Shown: in pieces, positions 10,954-60,765 of the stretch
How positions within the stretch are numbered: position 1 is the stretch's first letter
Layout of the letters: every line of letters begins with the position of its first letter
Notes under the pieces: model-generated
Seen by the model: only the letters and a program-made list of their open reading frames with translations
Database searches by the model: none
Told to the model about the DNA's origin: nothing
Made by a program: the position numbers and the translations under genes
IMG/VR virus record: IMGVR_UViG_3300020548_000009
Location: 20,685-84,684 of that record
DNA from: a virus
DNA: 64,000 nucleotides
Reading direction: 5' to 3' (one strand)

Positions 10954-11798
10954 TCAGTTTCCGAAGCAGCCTCGAATACCTGAACCATCTTGTCGTACTC
11001 TTGCTCGCTCAACTCAGCAGGCCAAGTTGTTGGGTCACCAAGTTGCTCGCGAACAATTTCCTGAATCCGAGGCGAGGAAAAATCAAACATTGACTTAACA
11101 GCCATGACGTCAATCTTTCCGTCATCATCTTTCTTGTTTGCACGGATGCCTTCAAGTGTGATGATGAGGGTGTTCAATTCGGCTTTCTGCATGGGCCAAG
11201 CGCGATTGTTGAGTTTTTCATGCGCGTCACGCAGTGTCTCAAGGTCATCTGGGGAAAGGTCTGAGCAAGACTGCTTGAACAATCGGTGCGCCTCTTCGCG
11301 CTCAGTGTCTGAGCGCCAATCCATAAGCGGCTTTACTGGCTGTTCTTTTGACTCAATCGGGAGTTGTGGCTGTGTCAGCGCAACGCCAGCGACAACGGAT
11401 TTGGTCTCAGTCTGTGGCGCTTGCTTTGGCGGTGTGGGAGTTGCACTTCCAGTTGCTTCGCGAAAACGCATCCACACCTTGAGGTCGTTCATGTTGTCTG
11501 GGTAGCCAGCCTTCTTTAGTGCTCGCCCCATTGCCTTTGAGCAAAGGACGTTCCACGAATCGGTATCGCGACCTTTAGCGTCAGAAAGGGTCTTGTAGCC
11601 AATCATTTGGCGCTCGTCACCAGAGAAGCGAGTGATGGTCGCAATACATACCTTCTCGTCTTTCTTGGAAAACGATGAGGGGATTCCGGCTTCGCCAGCG
11701 GTCCCTTCCGAGAATTCGACAGTGGCATCAGGCCAATCTGCCTTGAACATTGCCCACCTCAGTGAAGTGGAGATGTAATCGTCAAAGTTTATGGGCAT
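10950..11798 (-). CDS. putative single-strand annealing protein (Rad52/Sak-like)
   Basis: N-term FDDY...R...F..D.P and S.AMGRAL..AGY; first gene of the replication module. Confidence 0.4.
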   Translation of the reverse strand: MPINFDDYISTSLRWAMFKADWPDATVEFSEGTAGEAGIPSSFSKKDEKVCIATITRFSGDERQMIGYKTLSDAKGRDTDSWNVLCSKAMGRALKKAGYPDNMNDLKVWMRFREATGSATPTPPKQAPQTETKSVVAGVALTQPQLPIESKEQPVKPLMDWRSDTEREEAHRLFKQSCSDLSPDDLETLRDAHEKLNNRAWPMQKAELNTLIITLEGIRANKKDDDGKIDVMAVKSMFDFSSPRIQEIVREQLGDPTTWPAELSEQEYDKMVQVFEAASETE

Positions 11799-11838
11799 AC
11801 GCCCTCCTAACTTGTTTGTGGTTTATTCGGTTGCGAAC

Positions 11839-11867
11839 ACTATACAGGGGGTGTTCTAGTTTTGCAA
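11839..11867 (-). promoter_or_regulatory. sigma70-type promoter for the replication operon
   Basis: TTGCAA-N17-TATAGT, then AGGAGG SD before ATG 11798. Confidence 0.65.
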
Positions 11868-12026
11868 CTCTCCGCCATCGGTAATCGAATTTTGCTGATT
11901 TTGCTCCTGAAATGCAGCAATTGTGGCCTTGAGGATTGCATTTTCCCGAACCAAGTTTGCTATCTGCATGGTGAGTTCGCCGATAACACGATTCACATCT
12001 GGGGCAATCTGACTTGAAGGGCTCAT
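11856..12026 (-). CDS. 56-aa coiled-coil protein absent from the ORF track
   Basis: MSPSSQIAPDVNRVIGELTMQIANLVRENAILKATIAAFQEQNQQNSITDGGELQN; GGAG SD. Confidence 0.6.
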   Translation of the reverse strand: MSPSSQIAPDVNRVIGELTMQIANLVRENAILKATIAAFQEQNQQNSITDGGELQN

Positions 12027-12029
12027 GAT

Positions 12030-13385
12030 TTATTCTCCGTAGGCTTTCTTGTTTTTATAACTGTACCAAGTAACCGCAGTATGCCTATTCCCAAACAAAA
12101 CTGGATTGACCCTGTGGACAAAAGGAAACGATGATGAAAAAAGGACTATTTTTCCTGCTTTTGGTTCGACAACCAAATTGTGATTTTCAAATACCAGTTC
12201 CCCACCAGAAAAATCATCGTTCAGGAACATAATAACTGATATCACTCTTGGAAATTCAGCACAATCATCTGTGTGGTTATGAAACTTATCGCTTCGTTCA
12301 TACCTCAAAAGAGACCAGGTATGAGACTCTAAATCCAAGATATTATACATTTTTGCAAAGTCTTTTACTATCGGCTCCACTCCTGCCTGAAGGCTTGAAT
12401 ATAAGCGGTTTGCCGGGTCGTGAGGATGGCACTCTTCCGCAGAACTGTTTAAGAAATTTACATAGCAGCGCCTTGCGTTATAGTCGACAGTCGGTTTCCT
12501 GTCCGGACTCAAAACCTCAGCGCGCTTCCAAAATCTAAAACAAACATTTCTAGTGAGTCCGTCAAGAGTGAGCGATGCTTCTCGTGGAACCATGTACTCG
12601 ACAATTCCTGGAGCAAGAACCTTTTTTGACAATATTGGCAATTCGGTTATCTCCACCTCGTCATCAGTAAACTTGCTAAACATTTCCGTGTATGTTCCCA
12701 AAACATTTGAGTAGTCGTGGCACGGGCAAACTGGCTGTTCAACTGGACAATCTGGAAGTGGTATGTATCTGTTTTTATTAAAATATCGAATGTCTCCATC
12801 TCTTCCATATTTTTGCACGCCGTTTTTTTCAGTTTGAATCCAGTGGCTTGGCTGAGTGAAATGCATGAACAAAACAACAGTGCTCAATGAGTCATCCGTG
12901 GTTGGATACGGTGGCCGTGCGTGCATGTGCTGTTGACCAGCGAAAATGATTGCGCTGTTCGCTTCTTGCTTGTAGTCAACCCTCTCAACACGAAGGTCCC
13001 AATTAGCAGTGTTTTCAATTGTTAAATCTATTGTTGTCTGGGTGCCATTCTGGTCATAGTGTTCCCAAAGAGATGGTGTGCAGCCATTTTGAATTTGATA
13101 TCTAGAAACAAAGAAATATGCCTTCTCTAATGTGTCGTCATTAAAGATTTCTCTTGCCATTTTTAGACAGTATTCCTCAATGTCTGGGTCTAGGGATATT
13201 GACGATTCCCATCTACCTATCATCGTGTGATATTGCTTGTTGCCACTTGGGCCAAGTTTTAAATCATCTACAGATTTTTTTACTCTTTTAAATAATTCTT
13301 CTGGCAGAAAATTATTGATTAATTGTGGCTCATCAACCAGCGGCGTTGGCAAATCAAACTTAATTACGCCGTCACGCCTTGGCAT
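12030..13385 (-). CDS. two-domain 2OG-Fe(II) oxygenase, C-terminal domain prolyl-4-hydroxylase-like
   Basis: Domain 1 HYD...HARP; domain 2 HTD...FLNDDFSGGELVF...HRVNPVLFGNR. Confidence 0.85.
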   Translation of the reverse strand: MPRRDGVIKFDLPTPLVDEPQLINNFLPEELFKRVKKSVDDLKLGPSGNKQYHTMIGRWESSISLDPDIEEYCLKMAREIFNDDTLEKAYFFVSRYQIQNGCTPSLWEHYDQNGTQTTIDLTIENTANWDLRVERVDYKQEANSAIIFAGQQHMHARPPYPTTDDSLSTVVLFMHFTQPSHWIQTEKNGVQKYGRDGDIRYFNKNRYIPLPDCPVEQPVCPCHDYSNVLGTYTEMFSKFTDDEVEITELPILSKKVLAPGIVEYMVPREASLTLDGLTRNVCFRFWKRAEVLSPDRKPTVDYNARRCYVNFLNSSAEECHPHDPANRLYSSLQAGVEPIVKDFAKMYNILDLESHTWSLLRYERSDKFHNHTDDCAEFPRVISVIMFLNDDFSGGELVFENHNLVVEPKAGKIVLFSSSFPFVHRVNPVLFGNRHTAVTWYSYKNKKAYGE

Positions 13386-13388
13386 AAA

Positions 13389-13646
13389 TCACCACTTATT
13401 GAGTGGACAAACAGCATGGCCAAGCCTTGCCTTAAGCGGCATTATGCATCCACACTCGCGACATTGGCTTGTTTTGCTAATAAATGAATCGCAACCCTTG
13501 CAAATTTCAAGCCTTGCAGCAACTACATCGTCTGGGACGTGCATTCCAGGATTCAATAGATGCCATGGCCGCGCCTGACCTTGAGCAGCAAGTTTTTTCT
13601 TAAACTTATCCCAGTTTGTTTCAGGTTGGTTCTGTGAAGTTTCCAT
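13389..13646 (-). CDS. small Cys-rich protein (DUF6171-like)
   Basis: RLEICKGC...CRECGC...K.......CP..KW. Confidence 0.65.
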   Translation of the reverse strand: METSQNQPETNWDKFKKKLAAQGQARPWHLLNPGMHVPDDVVAARLEICKGCDSFISKTSQCRECGCIMPLKARLGHAVCPLNKW

Positions 13647-14031
13647 TTGAGTATCCCCATCCAGCCATAACCGCGTAGTTGTCAGCCTCTATCCTTGCAA
13701 GTGTAGCCCCACTTGTTAGCGCGGCAGCAAGAAGTTCACTTGAGATATGTAATACGTATTGAGTATTGCCTTCTTTTTGAATTTCTATTACTGCGTGTCC
13801 TTCTTGAACATTGTGATTGCCAGATTCAGTTACGTCAACAATGTTGCCACCGTTTAGGGCTTCCCAAATTGGCGGGTAGGTTGGGAATGTTGCCACTACC
13901 TGATTGCCCATTATCACCGCAACTGCGACACCCAAAGAAGAGCCCTTTTCCAAGCCGCGTTGCTCGGAGGGAATCCACCTATACCCACACTCGACCCCAT
14001 CGTAAAAAAGCCCAGATGTTTCTGTAATCAT
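13621..14031 (-). CDS. tail-tip accessory/fibre-assembly-like protein
   Basis: C-term AAAL.S...GWGYSNGNF..P, paralogous to the adjacent 66-aa gene. Confidence 0.5.
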   Translation of the reverse strand: MITETSGLFYDGVECGYRWIPSEQRGLEKGSSLGVAVAVIMGNQVVATFPTYPPIWEALNGGNIVDVTESGNHNVQEGHAVIEIQKEGNTQYVLHISSELLAAALTSGATLARIEADNYAVMAGWGYSNGNFTEPT

Positions 14032-14060
14032 TTCATCCTCACAATTTCGTTAGTAAATGC

Positions 14061-14261
14061 TTATTCTTCTGGAGCGTGAAAAGAAGTCCCATCGTATGTC
14101 CACCCAGGCAAAACCTCTGGTGAATCAGTAACTTCGACAACTGTTGGATTACTAGAAAGTCCAGCGGCCCACATAGGCGCTTTTGAATCATAATCATCCT
14201 GCATTACAAGTTGCATAAATACATCGCCTTGAGCGATAAATACGAAACGACGGCGTGCCAT
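14061..14261 (-). CDS. tail-tip accessory/fibre-assembly-like protein
   Basis: AAGLSSNP...GWTYDGTSF..P, directly after Tal. Confidence 0.55.
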   Translation of the reverse strand: MARRRFVFIAQGDVFMQLVMQDDYDSKAPMWAAGLSSNPTVVEVTDSPEVLPGWTYDGTSFHAPEE

Positions 14262-14273
14262 AGTTGTTAAATC

Positions 14274-17200
14274 TTATCCTATGCAGGTATTGGTCGCTAC
14301 ACACGTAAATCCTGGTTCGCATGGCGGGTCACAGACAGGAGGAGGGCTTACTGGCGGAGTAACAGGAGGTGTCACCGGCGGAGTAACTGGCGGAGTAACT
14401 GGCGGCGTGACCGGCGGAGTAACAGGCGGCGTGACCGGCGGAGTAACAGGCGGCGTGACCGGCGGAGTTACCGGCGGCGTTACCGGGGGAGTGTAGATGC
14501 CGTTACAGTCATTCGGCGCGTTCTGGAATGGCGCAAGGCATTGATTTTCATAACCACAAATTTCGTTAATGTAAAGGAACGTCGTGCATAGTTGACCCTC
14601 ATAGGAAGGTTCCACTGGAGATACTGGGTCAACCGGGGCAACTGGACCAACTGGGTCGACCGGGGATACTGGGTCAACTGGGCTTGGCGAACCAGCGCAC
14701 TCTTCAAGACAATAAATTGTTTCCGTGTTGTCATCATGAACAATGCGGGCAAATAACGTAAGGGTATCTGCGTCCCAAAAGAATCCGATTCTGTCCGTGT
14801 AATCATTTGCTTGATATTGAATTCCTTCTTTCCATACTGCAAGTTTTTCTGTTGTTGCCGGGTTGCCATCAGATGCCCACAACTCAAGTTTTTCCCATGT
14901 CAAAATTGATTTTGAACCAAATGAGTCAATGCTTTCTGGACCATTCAATTTCATTCCTGCCGCGTCATACCCTTGACTGTCCGCCCATCCTTCAGCAGAA
15001 TCAAGGTTTCCAATAAACATATTCCCCAAGAATGTGCCGCCAAGTTGTAGATATCCAGGTTGTATTTCCAGGTCTCCGATTTTTCCTGTTGCTGCAGTCA
15101 TGTAACCAGCATTTGTTACCGAAAATGGAGCATTGCTTATGCTGGCGGAACCGGACCACATGTCTCCATTTGCACCAACGTGGAAAGATGTGGCGTCAAA
15201 ACCACCAATATCAATTGTTGAACCAATAATTTGACCAGCAAAATATCCGTCAACTGTGTAAAGGTCACCAGTCACGGAACTAATTTGAGTTACCAAATCT
15301 CCGGCGTTATTGAATGCTCGGAGTCCTGAAGAATCTATGATAATTCGAGGATTAGATGTAGATGTTTGGAGCGTTGGTGCGGTAAGTGTTCCTTGAACCC
15401 ATGTGCCATTTCGTACTGTTACTGAGTTGAGTTCTGCATCTCCAGATGCTTCAATTGTCCATCCGCTTGTGTCTGCAACATAGTTGTTTGAGCGGATTGC
15501 TCCGTTGAACAAGACCTGAGCGCTTGCCGAAGCGGTGAAGGAAAACGGAGGAGATGGCACGCCGGACTGACCGTTTGTCGTATATGGAAGAATTGTAAAT
15601 TGGTATTCTCGCCCAGGAGCAGCAAGATTCTCAAACACTGCAGAGTTTTTGTCTGCGGCAACCGTGGCCGAGTGACGCTCAACAATTCGAGTTACGTCTC
15701 CGACAGATGCTGTTCCTGTTGGGATGTCTGGGCCTACGTCGTCAAATGTAAAAAAAGTTGCTGACGCACTTGTCAAAAACACAAGAGTTCTGTCAAAGTA
15801 TCCGTCTGTAGTGCCAGTGATATTGATTAAGTCGCCAACATTAAAGCCATGCTGGTCATCGACTTCTGCATAAGCAATATTTCCGTCACGGTAGATGTCG
15901 ACAATTGGATAACTAATTGCTATTCCAACACTGTTTTGCTCTTCTCGGTAAACAATCGCTTCGTAATGAGTAGCGCTTGTGTTGTCTGGGGATTCCCAAG
16001 AGGCAACAACTCTGTTGCTCATCCCAACAACTTCAGCGCCAACAGAAGTTCCTGTTGGCGCCAACGGCTTTGATGATGTGCCGCGAAGCGTAAATGTTGG
16101 TATTTCAGCAGCACCGAGACGCCCGTAGTTTGCTGCGTACTTTAGGTTGCTTGCAATATCCTGAAAGATGTCTCCGAAAGTGACTTCAATTGTTTCGTTG
16201 CCGTTTTCGTCGATAGAAGCACTTATCGCACTGATAATTCGTTCGCTGAATACTCCTGTATCAATTTCCACGAGTACTTTGTCGCCAATGTCAAAGTCTT
16301 CCCACGCGGTCATGCCGTCTCGCTCAGCAAATGATGTGGTTATTTGCAACTTGCCATCGCGAACCTGGCGAACCGCAGAGGCAGTGATATTTGCAACGGC
16401 CGGAGCATCTTCCGACGTATTCTCAATAAACATTTCACGGAAACCGTAAGTTCCTGTGCGGTCAGAGATTTGCCTATCCAGATTGAACCCGTCCGAGCCA
16501 TAAACAACTGTTCGTAGTTCAGAAACTGACGTTCGTGTTTCTACGGTCTCCAGCATTGGAAGACTAAAAATGAGTGCTGCAGAACCACTGGTCATGTCAT
16601 CGCCAAATGGTTCGTCAAACACAATTGTGTCAGTGGTAAACGGCCTTACTGCAACACTGATAACGCCGCTTGGCGAGACATGCCAATCCACGCCAGTATT
16701 TGCGGAAACTTCGTTTATTACATCAAGAAGAGTTCGGCCAACTGCAATGTTGAAGTTTCCTCCATCTCGAACGACTCGCCCTTTCGAGTCTGTTTTACCC
16801 AAAGATGATGTGAGGGTTGCATCAAGAGAAAGTGGCCAGTCAACCGCGTATCCGATTCCTCCACGGCCGTTAAGAGTTTTGATTGCGCCAAAGTCTTCCT
16901 TCTTTGTCGAATACTCATAGCCAGTATCTGCTTCTGTAAAGAGGATGTAAAAGGCAGATATTCCAGTGAACGCACCAAGCGAAACTTCGGTCCAGACAAT
17001 GCTTACTGAGCCAACTTGATTTGATGATGTCAGACCACCATTTGATGTAATAGCAAAAGATTTATACCCATTAGTTGTTCCTTCATTTACGAAGGCTGCG
17101 TTGCCGACTTCAAGGTCTGAGATTGGACTTCCGTCTGCCCTTGCAGTGCGCTGAATAACCCAAGGATTTGAAGAGCCACCAATAGAAACAATCCAATAGA

Positions 17201-17834
17201 CACCGTTATGGGCTTGTGTTGTTTGGTTTTTTACAAGGATGGTGTCGCCGACGACCAGGTCTGTAACGCCATCAATTCCGGAGTTGTTTATAGAACCATT
17301 GGCAGTTGCTGTAAGGCGTGCTCCAGCACCAGCCACATCTGTCTGTGGACCAGATTCATAGGTGGCAGAGAGATTGCCAGTCGTTGCAACTCTTACGTTA
17401 TATGCGTAACCGGGGAACAGTCGGTCAAAAAACTTCGGTCGCTGTGTTGTGCCTGCAGTTGCTCGTGCCTGATTGCTGAAATCCTCTGGAAGGACAATTC
17501 CCCACCCAAGAGCAGAAGCAATGCCGCGCCCACCAATAACAAGCGGCTGACTTACTCCGGCGCGGTCAACTTGCACATCCTCAATAAAAAACGTAAATAC
17601 CGGGTCTCCATCTCTGCGAACTTGCAGAGCGTATGGACCGTCAAGCAAAGAATCTCCACGCTCTGCTTGAAAAGCATCAAAGAATGGGTCTGAAAAATCG
17701 TGCTCCAAAGTTGCTGAGCCAACGTCGTTTAATTGGTCGGATAACTGAATTGACTTCCAGCGCGGCAAATACGCAATTGTTTGGTTTGGGTCGTTTGCTA
17801 GAACAACCCAAACATCCCAGGTTGTTTTAGCCAT
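14274..17834 (-). CDS. Tal/baseplate hub-central fibre protein with FN3 and Pro/Cys-rich C-terminus
   Basis: Follows Dit; DFDIGDKVLV...RII.I....E...VTFG hub motif, FN3-like segment, (TPPV)12. Confidence 0.8.
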   Translation of the reverse strand: MAKTTWDVWVVLANDPNQTIAYLPRWKSIQLSDQLNDVGSATLEHDFSDPFFDAFQAERGDSLLDGPYALQVRRDGDPVFTFFIEDVQVDRAGVSQPLVIGGRGIASALGWGIVLPEDFSNQARATAGTTQRPKFFDRLFPGYAYNVRVATTGNLSATYESGPQTDVAGAGARLTATANGSINNSGIDGVTDLVVGDTILVKNQTTQAHNGVYWIVSIGGSSNPWVIQRTARADGSPISDLEVGNAAFVNEGTTNGYKSFAITSNGGLTSSNQVGSVSIVWTEVSLGAFTGISAFYILFTEADTGYEYSTKKEDFGAIKTLNGRGGIGYAVDWPLSLDATLTSSLGKTDSKGRVVRDGGNFNIAVGRTLLDVINEVSANTGVDWHVSPSGVISVAVRPFTTDTIVFDEPFGDDMTSGSAALIFSLPMLETVETRTSVSELRTVVYGSDGFNLDRQISDRTGTYGFREMFIENTSEDAPAVANITASAVRQVRDGKLQITTSFAERDGMTAWEDFDIGDKVLVEIDTGVFSERIISAISASIDENGNETIEVTFGDIFQDIASNLKYAANYGRLGAAEIPTFTLRGTSSKPLAPTGTSVGAEVVGMSNRVVASWESPDNTSATHYEAIVYREEQNSVGIAISYPIVDIYRDGNIAYAEVDDQHGFNVGDLINITGTTDGYFDRTLVFLTSASATFFTFDDVGPDIPTGTASVGDVTRIVERHSATVAADKNSAVFENLAAPGREYQFTILPYTTNGQSGVPSPPFSFTASASAQVLFNGAIRSNNYVADTSGWTIEASGDAELNSVTVRNGTWVQGTLTAPTLQTSTSNPRIIIDSSGLRAFNNAGDLVTQISSVTGDLYTVDGYFAGQIIGSTIDIGGFDATSFHVGANGDMWSGSASISNAPFSVTNAGYMTAATGKIGDLEIQPGYLQLGGTFLGNMFIGNLDSAEGWADSQGYDAAGMKLNGPESIDSFGSKSILTWEKLELWASDGNPATTEKLAVWKEGIQYQANDYTDRIGFFWDADTLTLFARIVHDDNTETIYCLEECAGSPSPVDPVSPVDPVGPVAPVDPVSPVEPSYEGQLCTTFLYINEICGYENQCLAPFQNAPNDCNGIYTPPVTPPVTPPVTPPVTPPVTPPVTPPVTPPVTPPVTPPVTPPVTPPVSPPPVCDPPCEPGFTCVATNTCIG
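14350..14493 (-). repeat. 12 x 12-bp coding repeat, (TPPV)12
   Basis: Units such as ACTCCGCCGGTC and ACGCCGCCTGTT with synonymous variation. Confidence 0.95.
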
Positions 17835-18706
17835 TAGTAATAGGCCTTCCGATAGGAAATTGTCACTGTTCCGGACCCGGATGTGCGGCTACATGAAATC
17901 GTGTTGCTTAATGGGAATATCTCAAACCATGATTGACGAGCGCCAGCACGATACAAATTGGCAATATCATTAACGTTATTTTTCTTTAGCGTCAAAGCGT
18001 CAGTATCAATAACAACAGATTGTCCAGTTGGTATTGTGCCGTTGTAACCAATTGCTGTTTGACTCGAAGCGTAGGTTTCGTTAACAAGGCGAGGATTGGT
18101 CAGATTGTTAGTGGAAGTAAAAGTAATTGTCATATAGGTAATCGGCGCAGTGCCTACTGCGCTCGCGGACATCGGAACCGCAACCGGAGTGGTGGAGAAG
18201 TTTGCAGATGCTGAAGTGCTTGTAAGGGCAAACCATCTTGGGTCAGGAAACTGAACATCAACTGTAAATTCAGTTACGTTCAAGTCACGATGGTCCGAAA
18301 CAGTTACTGCGCCAACAACTTCACCGTAAGCAACTCGCGAAGAATAATTCAAAGGGTTGTCTGGATTGATGCGAACATGGGTGACCGTAAGAAGTTCAGG
18401 CATTTCGTTAAGCAGATTAAAAACCGTGTCGTAGTTTTCGTTGAACTGTGAGCGTCGTCCAGCCTCAGTCGCTGCGACCGAGCCGCTTACTGGGTCATTG
18501 TCACTAACCCAAATGGTCCATGTTTCTGTACGTGTGTCAAGCCGTTTTTCACGCCATTGTGTTCCGTGAATAATGGCCGAGCCAACATTTTCTCCCTTTT
18601 TAGCGGGAATGCCGCGCTCAACACTTGAAAGCATGTAGCCGTGAGTGGCAAGTTCTACCCCATTGACGTCGTACCACTCAAGAACATTTGGAAGCGCTGT
18701 AGACAC
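17834..18706 (-). CDS. distal tail protein (Dit)
   Basis: After tape measure; F...DPRWF, NPRL.N, V.IDT; TAATG-coupled to Tal. Confidence 0.8.
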   Translation of the reverse strand: MSTALPNVLEWYDVNGVELATHGYMLSSVERGIPAKKGENVGSAIIHGTQWREKRLDTRTETWTIWVSDNDPVSGSVAATEAGRRSQFNENYDTVFNLLNEMPELLTVTHVRINPDNPLNYSSRVAYGEVVGAVTVSDHRDLNVTEFTVDVQFPDPRWFALTSTSASANFSTTPVAVPMSASAVGTAPITYMTITFTSTNNLTNPRLVNETYASSQTAIGYNGTIPTGQSVVIDTDALTLKKNNVNDIANLYRAGARQSWFEIFPLSNTISCSRTSGSGTVTISYRKAYY

Positions 18707-18711
18707 CTATA

Positions 18712-21700
18712 TCACCCGAACAATCCACTGTTTGCCAGAACCTTCATGCGGCGGGTGATTGAATCTTCCGCTGCTGCAGGTACTGGGTTATTGACCGTGA
18801 CAATAATAGGCTGGCCAGACGACGTCTGTGGTGTCGCTGTTTGACGTTGTGTGTTTCTGGTGTATCGCTCAAGAGCGGAATTCGTGACGATTGTTCCGGA
18901 AACCTTTGGAATAAACATTTCCGGGCCACGCTCCCCAACAACATATGGCATTTCACCGGAAACAGGCCCACCAACAGCCCTAAAGCCCGCAAGATACTTA
19001 TTCCATTCACTATTCAAAATGCTCTTGTATCGAGTATCGAACGCCCCAGAGGCAACCAACTGGTTCCGGAACTCTTGGCCGCCTCCTGCATACTGGCCGC
19101 CAAAACTTGCCAATGTGGCGTTCTCGACCGACTTCTTATTTGCACTCAGCCATTGCGAATATGTCATCGGCTTTGTGCCAAGTCCGCTTTGTGATGAGTC
19201 TGGGTTTATCCCGCCACCGCCGCCGCCATCAACGATTGCAGTAACTGGAATTCGCAAAACAAGTGGCGACTTGGCAAATGATTCGTTCGCCGAAAACTGG
19301 ATTGCCTTAAAAATTGCTGGACCCAATGAGTTAAGGTCCTTCCACATTTGACTGTCTTTATTGAGGAGCCCGGCAGCAAGATTTTTAAATTCAGCCCCAA
19401 TGCCGGCGGTCAGTGTATTGAGATTTCCACCAGCCTTTACAATCTTTGCAAATACTCCGTCTGGACCGTCAAGAGTTGTGTTGAATGCTTGACCAGTTAC
19501 TTCAATATTGTTACCAAGAGTAGAAACATAACCGCCAACAGTTGACACATAGCCACCGTATGTGCCAACTTGGGTTCCAAGGGTGGTTAGGTTGGTTGTG
19601 CCAACTTGCAACTTGCCACTAGCAATTCCAGTCGCTGTTGCCAAATTGTTATAAACAGTCTCAAGTTCTTTATGATTTGCGTAAAGTTCTGCTGCTGCTT
19701 CTTGTACTCCTTGGTAAGCGGAAAGGACGTTTACCGTTGCATCAGCAAGATTAAGTTGTTTGTTTTCAACATCAACAGATGCATCGATGAACTTGTTTTG
19801 CGAATCAATAACTGTGTCGTTTACCTCGGATGCTGCTGCACGCGCTTCAAATAGGGCGATTTCTGCATCTACAAGTTGGACATATGATGCGCGCCCCATT
19901 GCATAGTCGCGTGAGACACGTTCAAATTCCAATTGCAATTCATCAAGTTGTGCTTGTTCGTACCCTGTTACTTGTGCGCCTCCACCAACGCCAAAGCGCG
20001 TTTCCGCATACTGCTGTTCACGAGCGGCTCGTTTTCTGCGGTCATCAAGCGCTCGCTGCATGTTGATGAGTTTTGCCAAGTCGGCTTGAGCCTTGCGGAA
20101 GTTTAACTGCGACTTGATATAACCAGAAAGTGAGCCAATAATGTCCTTCATTCGACCCATTACTGCTTTTACGTAATCTGTGGCGGGTGTTTCGACATTG
20201 TCTTTTTGCTCAAGGAACTTTTTGAAGAAAGCGCCAGCACCCCTATAGCCACCCTTCTTGTATGCGTTCATAATGGCATTTTGCATTGACTTCTCAATTA
20301 CACGACCAGAACGACCAGCCATTTCTGCCTGGAATCCAACAGCGACACCTTCTGCGGACGGTGTACCAACTTCTTTTGCCATTACCGTTGACGGGCTCTT
20401 GATGCCGAGGCGGCGCTTCAGACGAGCAATTACATCATCGCCAACAGCGTCAATCGCTTGCGAAACATATGGTCGACCATTTTCAATACCCATGGCAAAT
20501 CCAGCCATGAGGTCATTGCCGACTTGTTGCATTTCCTTGCCTTGTGCATCTTTTGCGCCAAAAAGAGTTTTAATTATGTCCGGCATGATTCCATCACTGC
20601 TCGTACCAAATTGATGCATTTCCAAGAACTTAGTAATGTCCACTTCGCTCAATCCGGCTGCCATTCCGTCCCCAACGATTCGAGCAATTCCTTCGCCTAG
20701 CGCACGTGTTGCTCCAGCCTCGTCTCCAGCAAGTGCAAATTGATTTACGACCTCAAGAACACTGTCCATTGCATCAAGAAGGCCTTCTTGGGCCTTGTCG
20801 GCGTTAACACTTCCGGAGAACAGGTCGCCACCGGCTTTCGATGCATCCTCCCTGAAGTTACGCATAGAATCACGGAAGTCAATTTGTGCTTCTGTCATTC
20901 CTCTCGTGACACCCATAAGGGCTTCTTGGCCTCGTTGGAAATTCTTAAGTGCTGCTTGCGCTGCATCAAAATCATCAACCAGACCCTGTATTTCAGGATG
21001 CAAGCCTTCAGAGAAACGGTCGCCAAGAGCAGTTACCGCAGTATCAAGGCTGTAAACGCTGCGCACAACCTCCTCTGATTTAACGCTCATTTCCCCAAGG
21101 GCATCAACTAAAACTTTTGCCGATGCGGCAGCACCTTTTGCGCCAGATGGGATAGCCCTCATTCGGTCTCGAAGAACCTCTAATATTTCAAGTGCGCGCT
21201 GTCCCTCAACACCAAATGTATTTTCAATAAACTTAATGGCAGCAGTTTCATTTGCAGTCTTTAGAAAAACATCCCTAAAGTTTCCGGCCGATTCGCCAAC
21301 AAGTTCAAAATCTCCAGTCAGACCCTTAAGTGCTGGACCAACGATTTGAGAAATAACTTCTGCTTGAGTATTTGAGGATGTTCCAGCAGATTCAAAATAT
21401 GCTTGCCACTTTCTAATATTTGCAACAAGCGGGTTGAGTTGTCCAGTATTTTGAATTGTGTCAGTAAATGCTTGACCGTACGCACCAAGCGCTTCTTTGC
21501 TTCGGTACGCATGTTCTTCCATTTCTGTGTCGGTAACTTTTTTAATAAATGTTTCGAGTCCATCGCCAGCCTTAATTGATTCGCTGGAAATTACATCTGC
21601 CCCACTTGCCACAGCAGATGCAAGAGCCTGAAATGTCTCCGCATTGGTAAGTGGGTCACCAAATGCTTCGTTGTAGTCAACACTTGCGCCAAGTTCTCTA

Positions 21701-23628
21701 AAGGCTTTTGCAACATCTGGTCGCACCGAAAGCATCAGGGCAACAAAAGTGTCTTTAAATTCTTTTGTATTTCCGGCAAATGCGGTATCAAGCATTGACT
21801 GGATATATAGCGCTCCTGCTTGTGCGCCCTGCTTTGTGACCATGCTCTTAAAATCAGGAATGAGGTCTGGCGACTGTTCTTCAATTTCTTCCCTCATTCG
21901 CTTAACAGCCGCCATTGCATCGGCGTTATCCGTATTAATTGTTACGTCAAATACAAGATTTGACCTTCCGTATTTAACGGCTTCGTCTAGCAACGTGTTT
22001 AGTTTTCCAACACTTCCCGCAAGAGAGTCAGCGCCTTCCTTACCACTATTGAACATTCCAGCAATAAACTTGAAACCCTCAAACAACAACAAGCCAATTG
22101 TTAGAACTGGGATGATATAAGCCATTGATTTAGTCAAGAAATTCATGGAGAGGGCAACCATTCTGATTGAGCCTGCCAAAAATCCGTTTGCCGCAGTCCA
22201 TGCACCGATTGACTTTGTTACTGTTCCTGTAGCCGTACTAGCAGTCATTGTTGCTGTTGTGTATTTTGTAATCGCGCCAGTTGTTGCGTTGTATCTAAAT
22301 TGAGTTCCGAACAATGTAATATTTAAGTTTGAGCCCAAGCGAATGAGTGCCGACATTGTTTTCATAACTGTTGCAAGTGCAGCAACAGCGATTACCGCAC
22401 CAGCGGCAACACGAGCAAATCCCCTACCAAATCCAGTTCCCAAAAATGCGCCAAAAGTTTTGGTTATCGCGGTTCCAAGTTTTAACAACGATGTTATGAC
22501 TGGCTTTAAGCCTTCGCCAAGTTTAATTAACATTGTCTGTTGTTCCGCCATCGCCTTATTAAATTGCGCATCTGTTGTATTCGCGTAAGCAGAAAATGCA
22601 TAATCCAAGTCTCCAGTGGCAGATTGCATGCGCTCGAAGATTTGTGCATTTTCTTCTGCGGCAGGACCAACCAAAGAAAGCACTGCCGTAAGGGCTCGTA
22701 CGTTTCCGAATACTTTTGTAAAGTCCGCAGCGTTTTCAATGCCGCCAAGTTGGTCTCGCAATTCAATCAGGGCCGGAAATAAACCTTTTTCTTGGATATT
22801 CTTGCGAATTTCGTCTGCGTTAGTTCCAACACCAGCAAGAACTTCTTGCGCTTGCTTTGATGGCTTTAGCAACTGAGACAATGTTTGACGAACATAAATA
22901 GCAGCAGTTCCAGCGGACAAACCACCTCGCGAAAGAGCGGCGATTGCAGCAGATACGTCTTCAAATGATGCGCCGTATGCCGCGGCAACTGGCAAAACCT
23001 TACCGAGTGCCGGAGCAAACGTATCTGCTTCCGCCTTACCTTCACGTACAGTTGCAACAAGAATGTCAGTGGCTTTTGCCGCTGAGTAATTTTCTTGTCC
23101 GTATGCATTCAATGTAGAAGTGACGGCGTCGGCAACAGTGTTAGTTGTTCCCAGACCAGCAGCGGCCGCCTTTGCTGAAGCCTCAAGTACTTCAAGCGCA
23201 GTGCTTGCCTCTTTAATACCGGCAGAAGTGATGTAGTAAAGAGCGTCAGCGAGTTCCAATGGTGCTCTGGTTGTTTCTCCGGCAAGAGAAAGAACCTTTT
23301 CTCGCATCGTGTCAATGCTGTCACCACCAACGACGACCAAGCCCCTAATGCGGGAAAATGCCAACTCAAACTGTCTCTGCATTTGAATTGCCTGTTTGCC
23401 GGCATTCATAAATGCACCAACAACCGTGTACTTCATCAGGGTCGCTGTCATTCGCATTGCATCGCCAAGAGTTCTGGTGGATATTGAACTGGCAGCAAGC
23501 GACTTGCTCATTGAGCCGCCAGCGCGCGTGACGGCGCTCATTCCGCGCGCAGCAGCATTTACACCAGTGGTGGTGATGCGCACCTGTACGTTAAGTGGGC
23601 TTACCCCACCAGTTCCTGCCGCGGCCAT
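18712..23628 (-). CDS. tape measure protein (TP901-like core)
   Basis: 1638 aa, Ala-rich helical; GIKSPS and C-term GGPV....YVVGERGPEMF. Confidence 0.95.
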   Translation of the reverse strand: MAAAGTGGVSPLNVQVRITTTGVNAAARGMSAVTRAGGSMSKSLAASSISTRTLGDAMRMTATLMKYTVVGAFMNAGKQAIQMQRQFELAFSRIRGLVVVGGDSIDTMREKVLSLAGETTRAPLELADALYYITSAGIKEASTALEVLEASAKAAAAGLGTTNTVADAVTSTLNAYGQENYSAAKATDILVATVREGKAEADTFAPALGKVLPVAAAYGASFEDVSAAIAALSRGGLSAGTAAIYVRQTLSQLLKPSKQAQEVLAGVGTNADEIRKNIQEKGLFPALIELRDQLGGIENAADFTKVFGNVRALTAVLSLVGPAAEENAQIFERMQSATGDLDYAFSAYANTTDAQFNKAMAEQQTMLIKLGEGLKPVITSLLKLGTAITKTFGAFLGTGFGRGFARVAAGAVIAVAALATVMKTMSALIRLGSNLNITLFGTQFRYNATTGAITKYTTATMTASTATGTVTKSIGAWTAANGFLAGSIRMVALSMNFLTKSMAYIIPVLTIGLLLFEGFKFIAGMFNSGKEGADSLAGSVGKLNTLLDEAVKYGRSNLVFDVTINTDNADAMAAVKRMREEIEEQSPDLIPDFKSMVTKQGAQAGALYIQSMLDTAFAGNTKEFKDTFVALMLSVRPDVAKAFRELGASVDYNEAFGDPLTNAETFQALASAVASGADVISSESIKAGDGLETFIKKVTDTEMEEHAYRSKEALGAYGQAFTDTIQNTGQLNPLVANIRKWQAYFESAGTSSNTQAEVISQIVGPALKGLTGDFELVGESAGNFRDVFLKTANETAAIKFIENTFGVEGQRALEILEVLRDRMRAIPSGAKGAAASAKVLVDALGEMSVKSEEVVRSVYSLDTAVTALGDRFSEGLHPEIQGLVDDFDAAQAALKNFQRGQEALMGVTRGMTEAQIDFRDSMRNFREDASKAGGDLFSGSVNADKAQEGLLDAMDSVLEVVNQFALAGDEAGATRALGEGIARIVGDGMAAGLSEVDITKFLEMHQFGTSSDGIMPDIIKTLFGAKDAQGKEMQQVGNDLMAGFAMGIENGRPYVSQAIDAVGDDVIARLKRRLGIKSPSTVMAKEVGTPSAEGVAVGFQAEMAGRSGRVIEKSMQNAIMNAYKKGGYRGAGAFFKKFLEQKDNVETPATDYVKAVMGRMKDIIGSLSGYIKSQLNFRKAQADLAKLINMQRALDDRRKRAAREQQYAETRFGVGGGAQVTGYEQAQLDELQLEFERVSRDYAMGRASYVQLVDAEIALFEARAAASEVNDTVIDSQNKFIDASVDVENKQLNLADATVNVLSAYQGVQEAAAELYANHKELETVYNNLATATGIASGKLQVGTTNLTTLGTQVGTYGGYVSTVGGYVSTLGNNIEVTGQAFNTTLDGPDGVFAKIVKAGGNLNTLTAGIGAEFKNLAAGLLNKDSQMWKDLNSLGPAIFKAIQFSANESFAKSPLVLRIPVTAIVDGGGGGGINPDSSQSGLGTKPMTYSQWLSANKKSVENATLASFGGQYAGGGQEFRNQLVASGAFDTRYKSILNSEWNKYLAGFRAVGGPVSGEMPYVVGERGPEMFIPKVSGTIVTNSALERYTRNTQRQTATPQTSSGQPIIVTVNNPVPAAAEDSITRRMKVLANSGLFG

Positions 23629-44271: not shown

Positions 44272-44763
44272 TCAGCACGGGCCCAATTTTGGATTAAAGC
44301 AGGGTGGGAAATATGGCGGGAAGAAAGGTGGGAAGAATGGCGGGAAGAAAGGTGGGAAGAACGGCGGGAAGTATGGGGGGAAAAAGGGCGGGAAGAACGG
44401 TGGGAAAAACGGAGGGAAAAAAGGCGGAAAATACGGAGGAGTTACCGATGGTGATGCCGCTGAAACATCTGATGGAACGCCATAATTTGTATTTGCGACA
44501 ACCGTAAATGTGTAAGAAGTTCCAGAAGTTAAGCCAGATACGGTTATCGGTGAAGATGAGCCAGTCGCAGTCAAACCGCCAGGGCTTGAGGTCGCCGTAT
44601 ATGTAACTGTTCCCTTGCCAATGTAAGAAGACGGTGTGAAAGCAACGCTTACCTGCTGTGCGTTGTTCGGGTTTGTGTTATTGACAACGGGAACGACCGT
44701 CCCTGTTGGGGACGACGGTGTCGTTGGCTTTTTGCCGCCACTGTCCTTTGGTGCCCTTGCCAT
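44272..44763 (-). CDS. FN3-domain protein with (PP[F/Y/C]F)12 tail, probable fibre-tip/adhesin
   Basis: FN3 (V.FT...YT.T..PGG.T.TG.SSPITV.GL..GT.YTFTV.A); starts 3 nt after the long fibre gene. Confidence 0.8.
   Translation of the reverse strand: MARAPKDSGGKKPTTPSSPTGTVVPVVNNTNPNNAQQVSVAFTPSSYIGKGTVTYTATSSPGGLTATGSSSPITVSGLTSGTSYTFTVVANTNYGVPSDVSAASPSVTPPYFPPFFPPFFPPFFPPFFPPYFPPFFPPFFPPFFPPFFPPYFPPCFNPKLGPC
44296..44439 (-). repeat. 12 x 12-bp coding repeat [PPYF(PPFF)4]2-PPYF-PPCF
   Basis: Direct translation; all four Pro codons and both Phe codons used. Confidence 0.95.
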
Positions 44764-59298: not shown

Positions 59299-60765
59299 TT
59301 ACTTCGACATTTCCTTCAAAAGGAGATGGAATTCCTTCAGGTCATCAAACGAAATGGCCGCAGTTTGCTTTTGGTCGTCGGCGGCCTTTTCCTCAACAAC
59401 TTCTGTTGTGGCTTCAGTGGTCTCTGTTTGTTCTGCTGCTGCTTCTTCTGACTTCACTTCTTCAACAGTCTCGGTTGTCTCAACTGCGGGAATTTCTTCC
59501 GCTGCTTTTTCCTCAACAATCTCTGCTGTTTCCGCTGCGACTTCTGTTGCAACTTCGTCGGACTTTGCTTCTTCTGCAACTGGAGCGACTTCTTCGGTCA
59601 CATCACCGCTGTCGTACTGTGCCAAACGCTCAAGAATCTCCGCGTTCTGTTTCATGGCCCGCTCAACCAGCGCCATGAACTCGGTGTCCATCTTTTTCAT
59701 TGCACTCTCCTCTTCATCCTCCCCTTCAGAATAGCCTTCTTCGGGGTCTCCTGTGGGCAAGGCTTCCTCTACCTTGAGGGCATCCCCCCTCGCCACGACT
59801 GTTACGTTGGTTGGGTGCCATTCCCCTGCTGACTTCAGCGAAGCCTCTTCTTCGGGCATATCCTCGTCATCCTCGGCCTCATCCTCTTCCTCCGCGGCCT
59901 CCTGCATCCATACCCTGATGAGGTAAGCGGGGTTTTCTTCAGTCCCCTCAAGTTCTAGGCCTTGGGGCTCTCCACGGACCTTGCCGTCTGTCTCGACCGA
60001 GACCACATCCCCATAGAAAGTCCCTTGGGTGGTCTCCCAAGAAACGATGGCTCCTGCTTCTGCCATGCCGTCAACCTTCTCCATGACAACAAATGTGCGG
60101 AGTTTCATTTCTGCATAGTCAAGTTCAAAGAACTCGCCGGTACGTTCGCCTTTTTCGTCCACTTGCTCAACAAGTGCGGAATCATCATCGGCCTCGACAA
60201 CGATGCCTTTCATCTCGGTTTTACCCTCAATCCAGGCGACATCGCTCTCGACGTCGATGATGTTATCCAAATCTTGCAATCCCTTGACGGTCAAGTCAAG
60301 CGACTCAGCCAATGGGGCATCAATTAGGCCCTTAAACATCATGATTGCATCAACATCCTCATCTGACTTGAGTTCGGGTGCTTGCATATCCGCATCAGCA
60401 TAGTGCGCGGCGATGTGGCGGTAAACGCCCTGACGTGCCGCTCCTCGCAAAACTGTTCCCTGTCGTCCACCATTGAGAACTGCCACGGAGTTGGAAAGTG
60501 CTCGGCCAGAGGCGGCTCCTGCTCGGCCACCTTCGCCAACAAAGTGATGGACGAAGGAGTAGTGAGTCTTGCGTGTTCCCTTTGTGTTTGGGAGTTGAAA
60601 CGCAAAAATGTCGTCGTAGTAAGACGGTGTTGCAGGTGAGCGCATCTTGCGGAACTGTACTGTCCTGTCCCAAGCAGATGTCCGGTCAACCGATGTTGAG
60701 TGCGATGGAATGACGCGGCCGTTTGGGCCAGCATCTTTAATCTCAACTTCGTTATTCTCAGACAT
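59299..60765 (-). CDS. head-module protein with domains paralogous to the protease and an acidic scaffold-like tail
   Basis: Duplicated GTRKTHY.F.HH...LNG.R.G...VY.HIA.HY domain, Tudor-like domain, Glu/Ala-rich C-terminus. Confidence 0.65.
   Translation of the reverse strand: MSENNEVEIKDAGPNGRVIPSHSTSVDRTSAWDRTVQFRKMRSPATPSYYDDIFAFQLPNTKGTRKTHYSFVHHFVGEGGRAGAASGRALSNSVAVLNGGRQGTVLRGAARQGVYRHIAAHYADADMQAPELKSDEDVDAIMMFKGLIDAPLAESLDLTVKGLQDLDNIIDVESDVAWIEGKTEMKGIVVEADDDSALVEQVDEKGERTGEFFELDYAEMKLRTFVVMEKVDGMAEAGAIVSWETTQGTFYGDVVSVETDGKVRGEPQGLELEGTEENPAYLIRVWMQEAAEEEDEAEDDEDMPEEEASLKSAGEWHPTNVTVVARGDALKVEEALPTGDPEEGYSEGEDEEESAMKKMDTEFMALVERAMKQNAEILERLAQYDSGDVTEEVAPVAEEAKSDEVATEVAAETAEIVEEKAAEEIPAVETTETVEEVKSEEAAAEQTETTEATTEVVEEKAADDQKQTAAISFDDLKEFHLLLKEMSK

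Follow-up and report, generated by a model that had tools for sequence, protein, structure and literature searches.

The window, as we call the 64,000-nucleotide stretch of DNA from an uncultured lake phage analyzed here, encodes a tail-tip protein that ends in a (TPPV)12 array and is followed by small proteins, a six-Cys DUF6171 protein, and a two-domain oxygenase. In IMG/VR phage contigs, this array-DUF6171-oxygenase combination recurs as a conserved cassette. We read the whole, with a probability of about 0.6, as a cassette in a late operon that would mature an appendage of the virion: the oxygenases would hydroxylate a proline-rich stalk. The modification is most likely prolyl hydroxylation.

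The tail-tip position of the array-bearing protein, called Tal in an earlier sequence-only reading, is confirmed by the tape measure protein (TMP; PF10145) and Dit (PF22768) genes upstream, and Sipho_Gp37 gives a partial match; domain searches found no lysin domain in the protein. Its C terminus consists of eight xPV triplets (SPVDPVSPVDPVGPVAPVDPVSPV), a 6-Cys segment (Cys1042, Cys1046, Cys1083, Cys1093, Cys1099, and Cys1110), exactly 12 TPPV units without interruption, and a 4-Cys end, and the translation bears out the earlier description of this order. The count of 12 units is that of the assembly, and no independent record spans the array; in four lake runs, Logan contigs cover this part of the window without differences and break in the array core (14415-14468). 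The synonymous codons of the TPPV units are scrambled (TRF, period 12, 78% matches), which points to protein-level selection rather than recent slippage. The protein combines a conserved N-terminal core of ~920 residues with a swappable C-terminal array module of ~260 residues: residues 1 to 920 are 62 to 93% identical in three relatives (L015, L019, and L038) whose C termini differ, and residues 929 to 1185 are 29% identical to stand-alone array proteins of 510 to 544 aa (L010 to L013).

Table 1. Features of the TPPV module and neighboring tail genes in the window
Feature	Position	Strand	Basis or remarks
p56, small coiled-coil-like protein, last tail-operon gene	11856..12026	-	phrog_1399
Oxygenase C-terminal domain, prolyl-4-hydroxylase-like DSBH (aa 246-451 + stop)	12030..12650	-	PF13640, 59.9 (cut-off 27)
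Oxygenase N-terminal domain, divergent DSBH 2OG-oxygenase (aa 1-215)	12741..13385	-	Alignments; model pLDDT 93.9
DUF6171 six-Cys protein	13389..13646	-	PF19668, 33.4 bits (cut-off 27); phrog_13558, E 3e-17
p136, distant p66 paralogue	13621..14031	-	Ends ..GWGYSNGNF..; profile match to p66
p66, small GWxYDGxxF protein, cassette member	14061..14261	-	Ends ..GWTYDGTSF..; weak phrog_14370 match
Tail-tip (Tal-position) protein, 1186 aa, array-bearing C terminus	14274..17834	-	Translation
SPPPV degenerate unit + 4-Cys end, CDPPCEPGFTCVATNTCIG	14277..14348	-	Translation
(TPPV)12 array (aa 1115-1162), candidate substrate	14349..14492	-	Translation and TRF
First Cys-rich segment (C1042-C1110) around xPV triplets	14505..14711	-	Translation, regular-expression search
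xPV triplets (aa 1051-1074)	14613-14684	-	TRF, period 9 at 14623-14682
Dit	17834-18706	-	Pfam PF22768
Tape measure protein (TMP)	18712-23628	-	Pfam PF10145

All module genes lie on the minus strand, and the intergenic spacing from the Tal stop through p56 is only -26 to +29 nt, so that the region reads as a single tail operon. The two GW proteins had been described as paralogs; iterated profiles do join p136 and p66 into one family (E = 2e-10, small database), but pairwise BLASTP yields no alignment between them. Orthologues of p136 occur in L014, L015, and L019, and in most loci jackhmmer finds members of the p66/p136 family encoded after the array protein and before DUF6171. The six-Cys protein described as following this pair is there and is DUF6171. 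It has the consensus C-x2-C ... C-x2-CGC ... CP-x-GKW with all six cysteines invariant, immediately precedes the oxygenase in virtually every locus, and is the sole copy in this genome. Behind the oxygenase, p56 is kept in some relatives (tblastn matches in L009 to L015, L019, L038, and L046).

The oxygenase (12030-13385, minus strand, 451 aa) is encoded four genes downstream of the tail-tip gene and comprises two fused DSBH domains (pLDDT 92.4 for the full-length model). HxD...H is conserved in each; in fold and in metal triads, the enzyme matches the double-domain hydroxylase proposed earlier. The top structural matches of the C domain (motif residues His371, Asp373, His424, and Arg434) are protein prolyl hydroxylases without exception: the best is an algal P4H with (Ser-Pro)5 (3gze; Z 21.7, rmsd 2.2 Å over 179 residues), and the others include PPHD complexed with EF-Tu (Z 20.7) and the viral PBCV-1 enzyme vCPH (Z 18.1). 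By HMM, the domain aligns to Bacillus anthracis P4H and PKHD hydroxylases; HxD...H...R is kept in 28 family members and aligns with the B. anthracis P4H motifs. In the N domain, His109, Asp111, His155, and Arg157 are invariant in alignments that include stand-alone homologues. Pfam and PDB sequence searches with this domain gave no match, and its fold matches are generic (best 6n1f, Z 14.3; prolyl hydroxylases, Z 12.6 to 13.2), with HalB, AviO1, and natural-product oxygenases among the neighbors. No residue of this domain could be assigned as its 2-oxoglutarate ligand, which, like the generic fold matches, speaks against the main reading. N-type and C-type domains occur as separate adjacent genes in other cassettes, a Rosetta stone arrangement.

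Several known enzymes resemble the C domain. Its best structural match, Chlamydomonas Cr-P4H-1 (3gze/2jig) of the algal/plant Hyp-rich glycoprotein pathway, binds PPII-type (Ser-Pro)5, and the substrates of that pathway are rod-like Pro-rich repeats of extracellular structural proteins. Sequence identity is only ~19%, however, and the unit there is Ser-Pro(n) rather than xPPV; the algal pathway lies in the ER/Golgi, whereas the window's TPPV module, which has no glycosyltransferase, would act in the bacterial cytoplasm. The nearest solved structure by sequence profile (E = 1e-7) is B. anthracis P4H, a prokaryotic peptidyl-prolyl hydroxylase, but this is a single-domain cellular enzyme that binds 2-oxoglutarate by a Lys where the window C domain has Arg. 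The Gly-X-Y periodicity of bacterial collagen-like proteins does not occur in the window's array. PBCV-1 vCPH (5c5t) is a viral P4H-like DSBH enzyme, and its presumed substrates are Pro-rich tandem repeats encoded by the same virus. In contrast to the cassette described here, it is a single-domain protein of a eukaryotic giant virus and does not share a cassette with the repeats; neither DUF6171 nor a GW protein accompanies it, and there are no enzyme clades specific to array type. Hydroxyproline was not detected in PBCV-1 virions (PMC7019647), and this best-known viral precedent counts against the prolyl-hydroxylation reading, as does the lack of a glycosyltransferase in the window's module.

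Across phage contigs, 44 dereplicated DUF6171 loci have 1.5 kb or more of upstream sequence. Of these, 39 carry an xPPV-type array ORF no more than 3 kb upstream of DUF6171 on the same strand, with homologous arrays that range from 7 to over 30 units; three of the five other loci have variant arrays (APVI, GFPVDP). Oxygenase domains are present in 43 of the 45 DUF6171 loci with enough downstream sequence and, among loci with enough flank, the oxygenase always lies near an array-bearing gene. The cassette sits on at least five different carrier proteins, which include Tal, fn3 proteins of ~200 aa, proteins of 440 to 540 aa, and a 1,328-aa protein with Listeria-Bacteroides repeats. Both sipho- and podovirus-type structural modules are represented; the window phage is a siphovirus, and L016 has the cassette within an SU10-like podovirus structural module. 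Gene order (Tal-array, small protein, DUF6171, and oxygenase) is unchanged in the close relatives L015 and L038, in line with the synteny that the sequence-only reading had suggested checking. No relative of the oxygenase turned up among 185,579 prokaryote species, each represented by a single genome, and our literature search found no paper describing a Pro-array/oxygenase cassette.

Behind all 35 dereplicated xPPV arrays that close with a Cys-rich segment lie DUF6171 and one or more oxygenases, whereas enzymes follow only 2 of 11 xPPV arrays without such an end. Scans made without enzyme bait gave the same picture for Cys-ended arrays (20/20). In a bait-free (TPPV)5 DNA-pattern scan, DUF6171 lay downstream of 33/33 Cys-ended arrays versus 0/19 linker arrays, that is, internal arrays without a Cys-rich end (Fisher p = 1e-12; two further odd cases). 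A Cys-rich end predicts DUF6171 irrespective of the type of array; the sequence-only reading had recognized neither this link nor the conserved membership of the small GW proteins.

The type of oxygenase goes with the type of array. With oxygenase domains clustered at 40% identity, loci behind xPPV arrays with a Cys end (n = 35) have 24 N-type, 20 C-type, and no ox229- or ox212-type domains, and those behind PPFF arrays (n = 50) have no N- or C-type, 34 ox229-type, and 34 ox212-type domains; no cluster is common to both. The specificity also holds in the pattern-scan loci alone (p = 3e-10) and within two-module genomes (the window, L035, and L047). Some 30 kb from the TPPV module, the window's PPFF protein (44272-44763) agrees with the earlier description. 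The fn3 protein of the window is 50 to 81% identical to other phages' xPPV carriers yet bears PPFF, and a different enzyme set lies downstream. The earlier proposal of a dedicated hydroxylase for every Pro-rich virion protein is partly supported: in genome comparisons it stands up well for the bait-free arrays and the disjoint clusters, with one lineage (L014 and L019, discussed below) as the exception. On an oxygenase tree of 188 tips, the array label changes 5 times, versus ~46 times with labels shuffled. With so few switches, much of the association could be the inheritance of linked genes in a mobile cassette and not the outcome of independent selection on several occasions.

We propose that the tail-tip C terminus would serve as a display module with what is presumably a rod-and-knob architecture: the Pro-rich (TPPV)12 stalk, a presumed polyproline-II rod of ~15 nm, would end in a small Cys-rich knob. 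The fused oxygenase would hydroxylate the stalk in the host cytoplasm, ahead of tail assembly. Its C-terminal P4H-like domain would target a peptidyl proline of the xPPV units, and the N domain may modify a second position, which could be the other proline, a different carbon of the same ring, or Thr/Val. For the knob, DUF6171 and the GW proteins are the most likely helpers, possibly in metal or disulfide maturation or as chaperones.

It is unlikely that the oxygenases modify the same appendage at residues other than its prolines, either in the knob or at Thr/Val of the units, in which case the array would act only as a spacer or for docking. Asp/Asn beta-hydroxylation of EGF-like domains is a model for knob hydroxylation. 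Since xPPV arrays without a Cys end almost never occur with enzymes, the knob could, on that alone, be the target; the generic fold matches of the N domain and a weak Asp_Arg_Hydrox match in one stand-alone N-type member (E = 0.005) are also consistent with such a target. However, the Cys-rich ends behind the arrays are hypervariable in sequence and Cys number (4 to 10 Cys in related loci), whereas the oxygenases are 45 to 89% identical across cassettes and it is the xPPV unit that is conserved. Further, the oxygenase clade tracks array type while the Cys end is tracked by DUF6171, Cys-less PPFF arrays (ending ..PPxFK) retain oxygenases, and the nearest structures of the C domain, all prolyl hydroxylases, argue for proline.

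We consider it quite improbable that the linkage merely reflects descent, with a host-directed or "auxiliary" oxygenase (for example, one that hydroxylates a ribosomal protein or translation factor of the host, in the manner of PPHD and OGFOD1) hitch-hiking in a mobile tail-accessory cassette. Phage 2OG oxygenases are viewed as auxiliary metabolic genes in the literature, and the few array switches on the tree and the similarity to PPHD in its EF-Tu complex would fit such an origin. Whole-protein Foldseek searches have OGFOD1 and Tpa1, two-DSBH ribosomal prolyl hydroxylases, as top matches (E = 4e-12), and the tandem DSBH architecture is shared with OGFOD1/Tpa1/Ofd1. Global superposition on that family is poor (rmsd ~20 Å), though, indicating a different domain arrangement, and a Pfam search detected no OGFOD1-family domains in the oxygenase. 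In OGFOD1/Tpa1/Ofd1, which act on a ribosomal protein, only the N-terminal DSBH is catalytic; the window oxygenase has HxD...H in both domains, and its P4H-like domain is C-terminal. Another point in favor of descent is that L014 and L019, one lineage from two samples, retain DUF6171 and an intact oxygenase without the TPPV array, an outcome that the sequence-only reading had named as evidence against its proposal. Their Tal is 93% identical up to the array and ends ..GIFTP at the first TP; the Cys end and p66 are absent as well, and the xPV triplets and first Cys segment are still there. Against descent stand the location of the oxygenase gene at the 3' end of a late tail operon, its invariable place near an array-bearing gene in loci with enough flank, the array-type-specific pairing inside two-module genomes, and the lack of relatives in the prokaryote genomes searched.

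Tailoring of a small molecule or of a non-ribosomal/ribosomal peptide metabolite is very improbable: natural-product oxygenases are among the N-domain fold neighbors, and the tandem dioxygenase arrays of cyanophage Syn9 (gp41-gp54) have been read as secondary-metabolite genes (Iyer et al. 2010; PMC2938197), but the cassette has no synthetase, halogenase, transporter, or precursor-peptide gene, strictly adjoins a virion protein bearing a repetitive array, and encodes a C domain whose fold is nearest to protein prolyl hydroxylases. The Syn9 arrays resemble the present case in that several classical 2OG oxygenases are clustered in a phage genome, and Syn9 is among the cyanophages that encode DUF6171; no Pro array lies within 4 kb of the cyanophage DUF6171 loci checked. 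A Pro-array substrate, the DUF6171 link, and a fused N+C enzyme are all undescribed in that paper, which did propose a co-encoded structural protein as substrate for bacterial dioxygenase operons with collagen-like/tail-collar proteins (PMC2938197). For the phages described here, the same stalk-oxygenase pairing recurs in dozens of unrelated contigs, and because of this recurrence the (TPPV)12 stalk is probably the oxygenase's own substrate.

The gene order tape measure protein (TMP), Dit, tip protein places the tail-tip protein in the siphovirus tail-tip (Tal) position, within the 64 kb at the right end of an IMG/VR virus record of 84.7 kb. All genes of the studied region are on the minus strand. 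In Pfam and PHROG searches, the tip protein matches only part of Sipho_Gp37 and minor-tail families, with no lysin or peptidoglycan-hydrolase domain. The sequence-only reading had described its last 150 residues as xPV triplets and a Cys-rich segment followed by exactly 12 TPPV units and a Cys-containing end, and the translation bears this out. The array is not collagen-like, as its unit is a tetrapeptide without Gly and so has no Gly at every third residue. Synonymous codons are scrambled across the 12 units, indicating that the array is kept up at the protein level; Logan contigs end at 14415-14468, inside the array, and the copy number of 12 is as assembled.

Intergenic spacing downstream of the tail-tip gene is -26 to +29 nt, and promoter- and terminator-like sites in the run from this gene to p56 are no commoner than in shuffled sequence. 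We therefore read the run as the 3' end of a late tail operon. Between p56 and the replication genes is a 57-nt gap (window positions 11798-11856), where two modules may meet at a terminator or promoter; an inverted repeat lies at 11835-11856, and the minus strand has a sigma-70-like site at 11867-11839. The small GW-motif proteins p66 and p136 give no BLASTP alignment with each other and are united only by iterated profiles, and a protein atlas search with p136 returned only unnamed viral clusters with scores below 0.8. Cultured phages yielded no blastn match to 11000-18000.

Features of the tail-tip region and of the C terminus of the tail-tip protein
Feature	Position	Strand	Remarks
Tape measure protein (TMP)	18712-23628	-	PF10145
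Dit	17834-18706	-	PF22768
Tail-tip protein, 1186 aa	14274-17834	-	directly after Dit
Eight xPV triplets	aa 1051-1074		within six-Cys segment of tail-tip protein
TPPV array, exactly 12 units	aa 1115-1162, DNA 14349-14492	-	
Degenerate SPPPV unit + CDPPCEPGFTCVATNTCIG			after the twelve TPPV units of tail-tip protein
p66	14061-14261	-	
p136	13621-14031	-	
DUF6171 protein	13389-13646	-	PF19668
Oxygenase, 451 aa	12030-13385	-	
p56	11856-12026	-	replication genes begin beyond p56

An alignment-based scan of IMG/VR, which succeeded where a single-protein query gave no loci, recovered 42 loci with full-length homologues of the oxygenase. A DUF6171 gene is directly upstream in essentially all of these, and in nearly all a protein with an xPPV array and a Cys-rich end is encoded 0.2 to 2.5 kb further upstream on the same strand, where x is T, V, S, N, E, D, or A. 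Among 44 dereplicated DUF6171 loci with at least 1.5 kb of upstream sequence, 39 contain an xPPV array by strict pattern; three of the remaining five have variant arrays, (APVI)5 or (GFPVDP)n, the others being extra copies of DUF6171. In 33 of the 44 loci, the interval from the array gene to DUF6171 encodes a small p66/p136-family protein, and of 45 loci whose downstream sequence is long enough, 43 have oxygenase domains. The order array gene, small protein, DUF6171, oxygenase is conserved in most of these IMG/VR loci. At some related contig loci (L008, L032, L038, L041, L047, and L048), the array gene and DUF6171 flank an extra protein of about 160 aa; it has a GNAT-like motif (..HPxxQRQG..) and weak Pfam matches to Acetyltransf_7/Acetyltransf_1. 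Two of the same contigs encode one small protein each (L041:8615-9154 and L047:8587-9240) that combines short PPFF-type and APVI- or xPV-type arrays with a Cys-/Gly-rich segment between them.

We also scanned IMG/VR for DNA encoding (TPPV)5, with no enzyme as bait, and counted informative loci. DUF6171 is found downstream of all Cys-ended arrays (33/33), 30 of which also have an oxygenase by tblastn, and neither gene accompanies any of the 19 arrays that lack a Cys-rich end and sit inside large TMP-like or other proteins (P = 1e-12). In two odd loci, DUF6171 and an oxygenase follow arrays whose ends do not qualify as Cys-rich. Long internal TPPV linkers occur in proteins ending in ..NVKRGGRIF and in large TMP-like proteins (L057, L099, L115, and others), and in one giant-virus MAG (L089); DUF6171 and oxygenases are absent nearby.

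The only DUF6171 gene of the window lies in the TPPV module, and its product matches the family profile at 33.4 bits (cut-off, 27). The consensus of 54 unique sequences is C-x2-C...QC-x2-CGC...CP-x-GKW, in which the invariance of the Cys residues is partly built in, since the sequences were picked by a Cys-pattern regular expression. DUF6171 accompanies 35/35 xPPV arrays with a Cys end and 2/11 without one (short tail); among the matches listed, it accompanies 7/10 PPFF arrays with a Cys end and 1/36 that end in ..PPxFK with no Cys. With the pattern-scan loci pooled, the association has an odds ratio of 70 (P = 6e-13). DUF6171 tracks the Cys-rich end, not the array type. The family is also found near fibre or tail genes in the cultured cyanophages Syn9 and P-SS2, and in the cyanomyovirus Synechococcus phage Sf-FS3 (PV340856.1, 183681-185090) its gene overlaps the start of a gene for a P4H-like (prolyl 4-hydroxylase-like) oxygenase, which is followed by a second oxygenase, sugar-nucleotide enzymes, and a glycosyltransferase. 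There is no Pro array within 4 kb of the DUF6171 gene in these three phages, and a literature search found no paper on DUF6171.

The 451-aa oxygenase belongs to a family of at least 114 database protein clusters, 44 to 89% identical over the full length, every one of them drawn from viral or metagenome records. A search of prokaryotes, with one genome for each of 185,579 species, found no relative, and in cultured phages tblastn aligned the C domain alone, at 24% identity, with cyanophage genes annotated as "ferrochelatase." The AlphaFold model of the whole protein has two domains (pLDDT, 92.4). The C domain (aa ~246 to 451) matches PF13640 over aa 359 to 441 (59.9 bits; cut-off, 27). D373, H424, and R434 are invariant in 28 sequences and H371 is kept in at least 90%, and H371-x-D373...H424...R434 aligns with the HxD, H, and R/K (iron/2-oxoglutarate) positions of PKHD hydroxylase and Bacillus anthracis P4H. 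Its best superposition is on Chlamydomonas prolyl 4-hydroxylase with a (Ser-Pro)5 peptide (3gze; Z 21.7, rmsd 2.2 Å over 179 residues), followed by Pseudomonas PPHD (Z 20.7), PHD2 (about Z 20), and the PBCV-1 viral P4H, vCPH (Z 18.1). By profile, triad, and fold, the C domain is a P4H-like 2OG-Fe(II) oxygenase and a predicted peptidyl-proline hydroxylase. That the enzymes would instead modify non-Pro residues of the same array protein is less well supported than hydroxylation of the Pro-rich stalk.

Modelled alone, the N domain (aa 1 to 215) is also a double-stranded beta-helix (DSBH; pLDDT, 93.9). Its best fold match is 6n1f (Z 14.3, rmsd 2.5 Å over 156 residues), with prolyl hydroxylases at Z 12.6 to 13.2; 102 chains match at Z of at least 8, the best 50 of the 102 all being 2OG oxygenases, and Foldseek E is about 1e-6. 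There is no Pfam match at E up to 0.01 and no PDB sequence match; a match to phrog_2954 is weak. H109, D111, H155, and R157 are invariant in alignments of fused and stand-alone homologues. The only invariant basic residues are R58 and R157, two past H155; the classical 2OG-binding Arg/Lys sits about 10 past the distal His. Since both domains are DSBHs with a conserved HxD...H, the description "double-domain hydroxylase" given from the sequence alone is right as to fold and metal ligands, and activity at each site is a prediction. Two neighbouring genes encode the N-type and C-type domains separately in several cassettes, a Rosetta-stone relation which argues that the two act in one pathway. 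The inter-domain region (aa 216 to 330) has an invariant Q217 and an invariant C319-H320-x2-D323-P324 (CHPxDP) motif, which may be a further metal or structural site.

To compare array types, we scanned IMG/VR for PPFF-type arrays (at least 119 stretches) and clustered the oxygenase domains of every locus at 40% identity and 70% coverage. The 35 xPPV arrays with a Cys end are accompanied by N-type (24) and C-type (20) domains and by none of the ox229 or ox212 type, and all have an oxygenase. The 50 PPFF arrays among the matches listed have no N-type or C-type domain; 34 have the ox229 type, 34 have the ox212 type, and 8 have no oxygenase. The split persists with pattern-scan loci only (P = 3e-10). 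A FastTree of the non-N-type domains (188 tips) shows 5 changes of the array label; shuffled labels average 46 changes and never give fewer than 39. This cuts both ways: the pairing of array and oxygenase is very stable, yet it is based on few independent switches. Linkage by descent, with a host target for the oxygenase, would draw on that small number of switches but is less well supported than a maturation cassette for a virion appendage. A full partition of enzyme families by array type is ruled out by xPPV-cassette oxygenases of the type found at locus L058, which below 40% identity resemble the ox229/ox212 families more closely than they do the fused N and C domains, placing specificity at the subfamily level. 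PPFF-type arrays (including those at loci L163 to L242) are commoner in viral contigs than TPPV arrays and, among the matches listed, most directly precede homologues of the window's ox212 and ox229 oxygenases and DUF6065. At L168, L199, L219, L220, and L240, the PPFF-array proteins extend into a domain that starts G|C-I/V-x-x-DT and has an ..HN-like end; intein, Hint, and PT-HINT Pfam matches are below threshold, and a self-cleaving Hint domain is a lead only.

Carriers of xPPV arrays include Tal proteins (the window, L015, and L038), fn3 proteins of about 200 aa placed after a fibre gene, proteins of 440 to 540 aa, and one 1328-aa protein with Listeria-Bacteroides repeats; the cassette at L016 accompanies an SU10-like podovirus structural module (portal, capsid, and adaptor). 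The fn3 domain of the window's own fn3 protein (44272-44763) is 50 to 81% identical to those of xPPV-bearing fn3 carriers, and the C terminus of the fibre upstream is 48 to 68% identical to the fibres of xPPV carriers. The array on this fn3 protein is nonetheless of the PPFF type, with the other enzyme set behind it and no DUF6171. One carrier with another array and other enzymes is the closest thing to a natural swap experiment. Loci L014 and L019, from two samples, are an exception. Their Tal protein is 93% identical to that of the window up to residue 1119 and ends in ..GIFTP, so these loci lack p66 along with the TPPV array and the Cys end, and p136, DUF6171, and an intact oxygenase are present at only 48 to 57% identity to those of the window. 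The break in Tal followed by divergent downstream genes indicates a recombination joint exactly at the array. Relatives that keep the oxygenase without the Pro array would, by the sequence-only reading's own condition, refute the pairing, and these loci are a partial counter-example of that kind; the xPV triplets and the first Cys segment remain in their Tal.

The most economical reading is a virion-appendage maturation cassette, in which the oxygenases, with their P4H-like C domain, would hydroxylate the Pro-rich stalk, and DUF6171 and the GW proteins would serve the Cys knob. More broadly, aquatic phages may use a modular post-translational "code" on host-binding appendages: short C-terminal Pro-array modules, with an optional Cys knob, would move among tail-tip, fibre-accessory, and further carrier proteins and take their own maturation genes along; xPPV and PPFF would each have a dedicated prolyl-hydroxylase-like clade; DUF6171 would be a Cys-knob maturation factor; and the products would be hydroxyproline-rich stalks or adhesives on virions, akin to extensins or mussel foot proteins. 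We give this joint reading a probability of roughly one in three.

Known parallels include the algal/plant HRGP pathway and, for the 451-aa oxygenase, the two-DSBH OGFOD1/Tpa1 enzymes. An extensin/HRGP-type system, in which Hyp glycosyltransferases would be encoded beside the hydroxylase, was rejected, as the unit here is xPPV, not Ser-Pro(3-5). No glycosyltransferase was found within 11856-14274 (Pfam, PHROG); two GT-B-like genes with weak matches lie 18 kb off, in the PPFF island. The OGFOD1/Tpa1/Ofd1 family has its own Pfam domains, an N-terminal oxygenase domain and an Ofd1-type C-terminal domain. Membership in that family was rejected because Pfam gives only PF13640, in the C-terminal half of the oxygenase, as was its domain arrangement (whole-chain superposition, rmsd about 20 Å, TM 0.30). 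Another parallel is the P4H of PBCV-1 together with that virus's Pro-rich ORFs, although Hyp was never found in PBCV-1 virions (PMC7019647). Iyer et al. (2010) noted cyanophage dioxygenase arrays and interpreted them as metabolite genes, and for bacteria proposed co-encoded collagen-like or tail-collar proteins as substrates (PMC2938197). That the oxygenases tailor a metabolite is less well supported here than the maturation cassette. Our literature search found no paper tying phage oxygenases to such Pro arrays.

In at least 20 freshwater or lake metagenome runs, 98% of sampled words from the 2.7-kb stretch 12030-14700 are present; the record itself may derive from some of them. Runs whose assemblies contain the stretch are dated 2016, 2020, and 2024, and four runs compared show zero differences over it. 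The N terminus of the 60758-63016 product is closest to Gordonia phage proteins (56% identity), mostly annotated as capsid maturation protease, a similarity that hints at an actinobacterial host.

Few unexplained genes of aquatic phages are as common as those for 2OG-Fe(II) oxygenases, which are usually filed as auxiliary metabolic genes or, in one earlier interpretation, as secondary-metabolite genes. The cassette supplies a candidate substrate for one well-conserved family of them, and xPPV and PPFF arrays, each with its own enzyme clade, offer a natural specificity contrast that makes the question directly testable. If confirmed, no earlier case of prolyl hydroxylation on a virion protein of a bacteriophage would be on record; DUF6171 would gain its first function, and the oxygenase would exemplify a protein hydroxylase with two fused active sites. 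The broader "code," if true, would assign some of the abundant 2OG-Fe(II) oxygenase "auxiliary genes" in these phages a concrete structural role.
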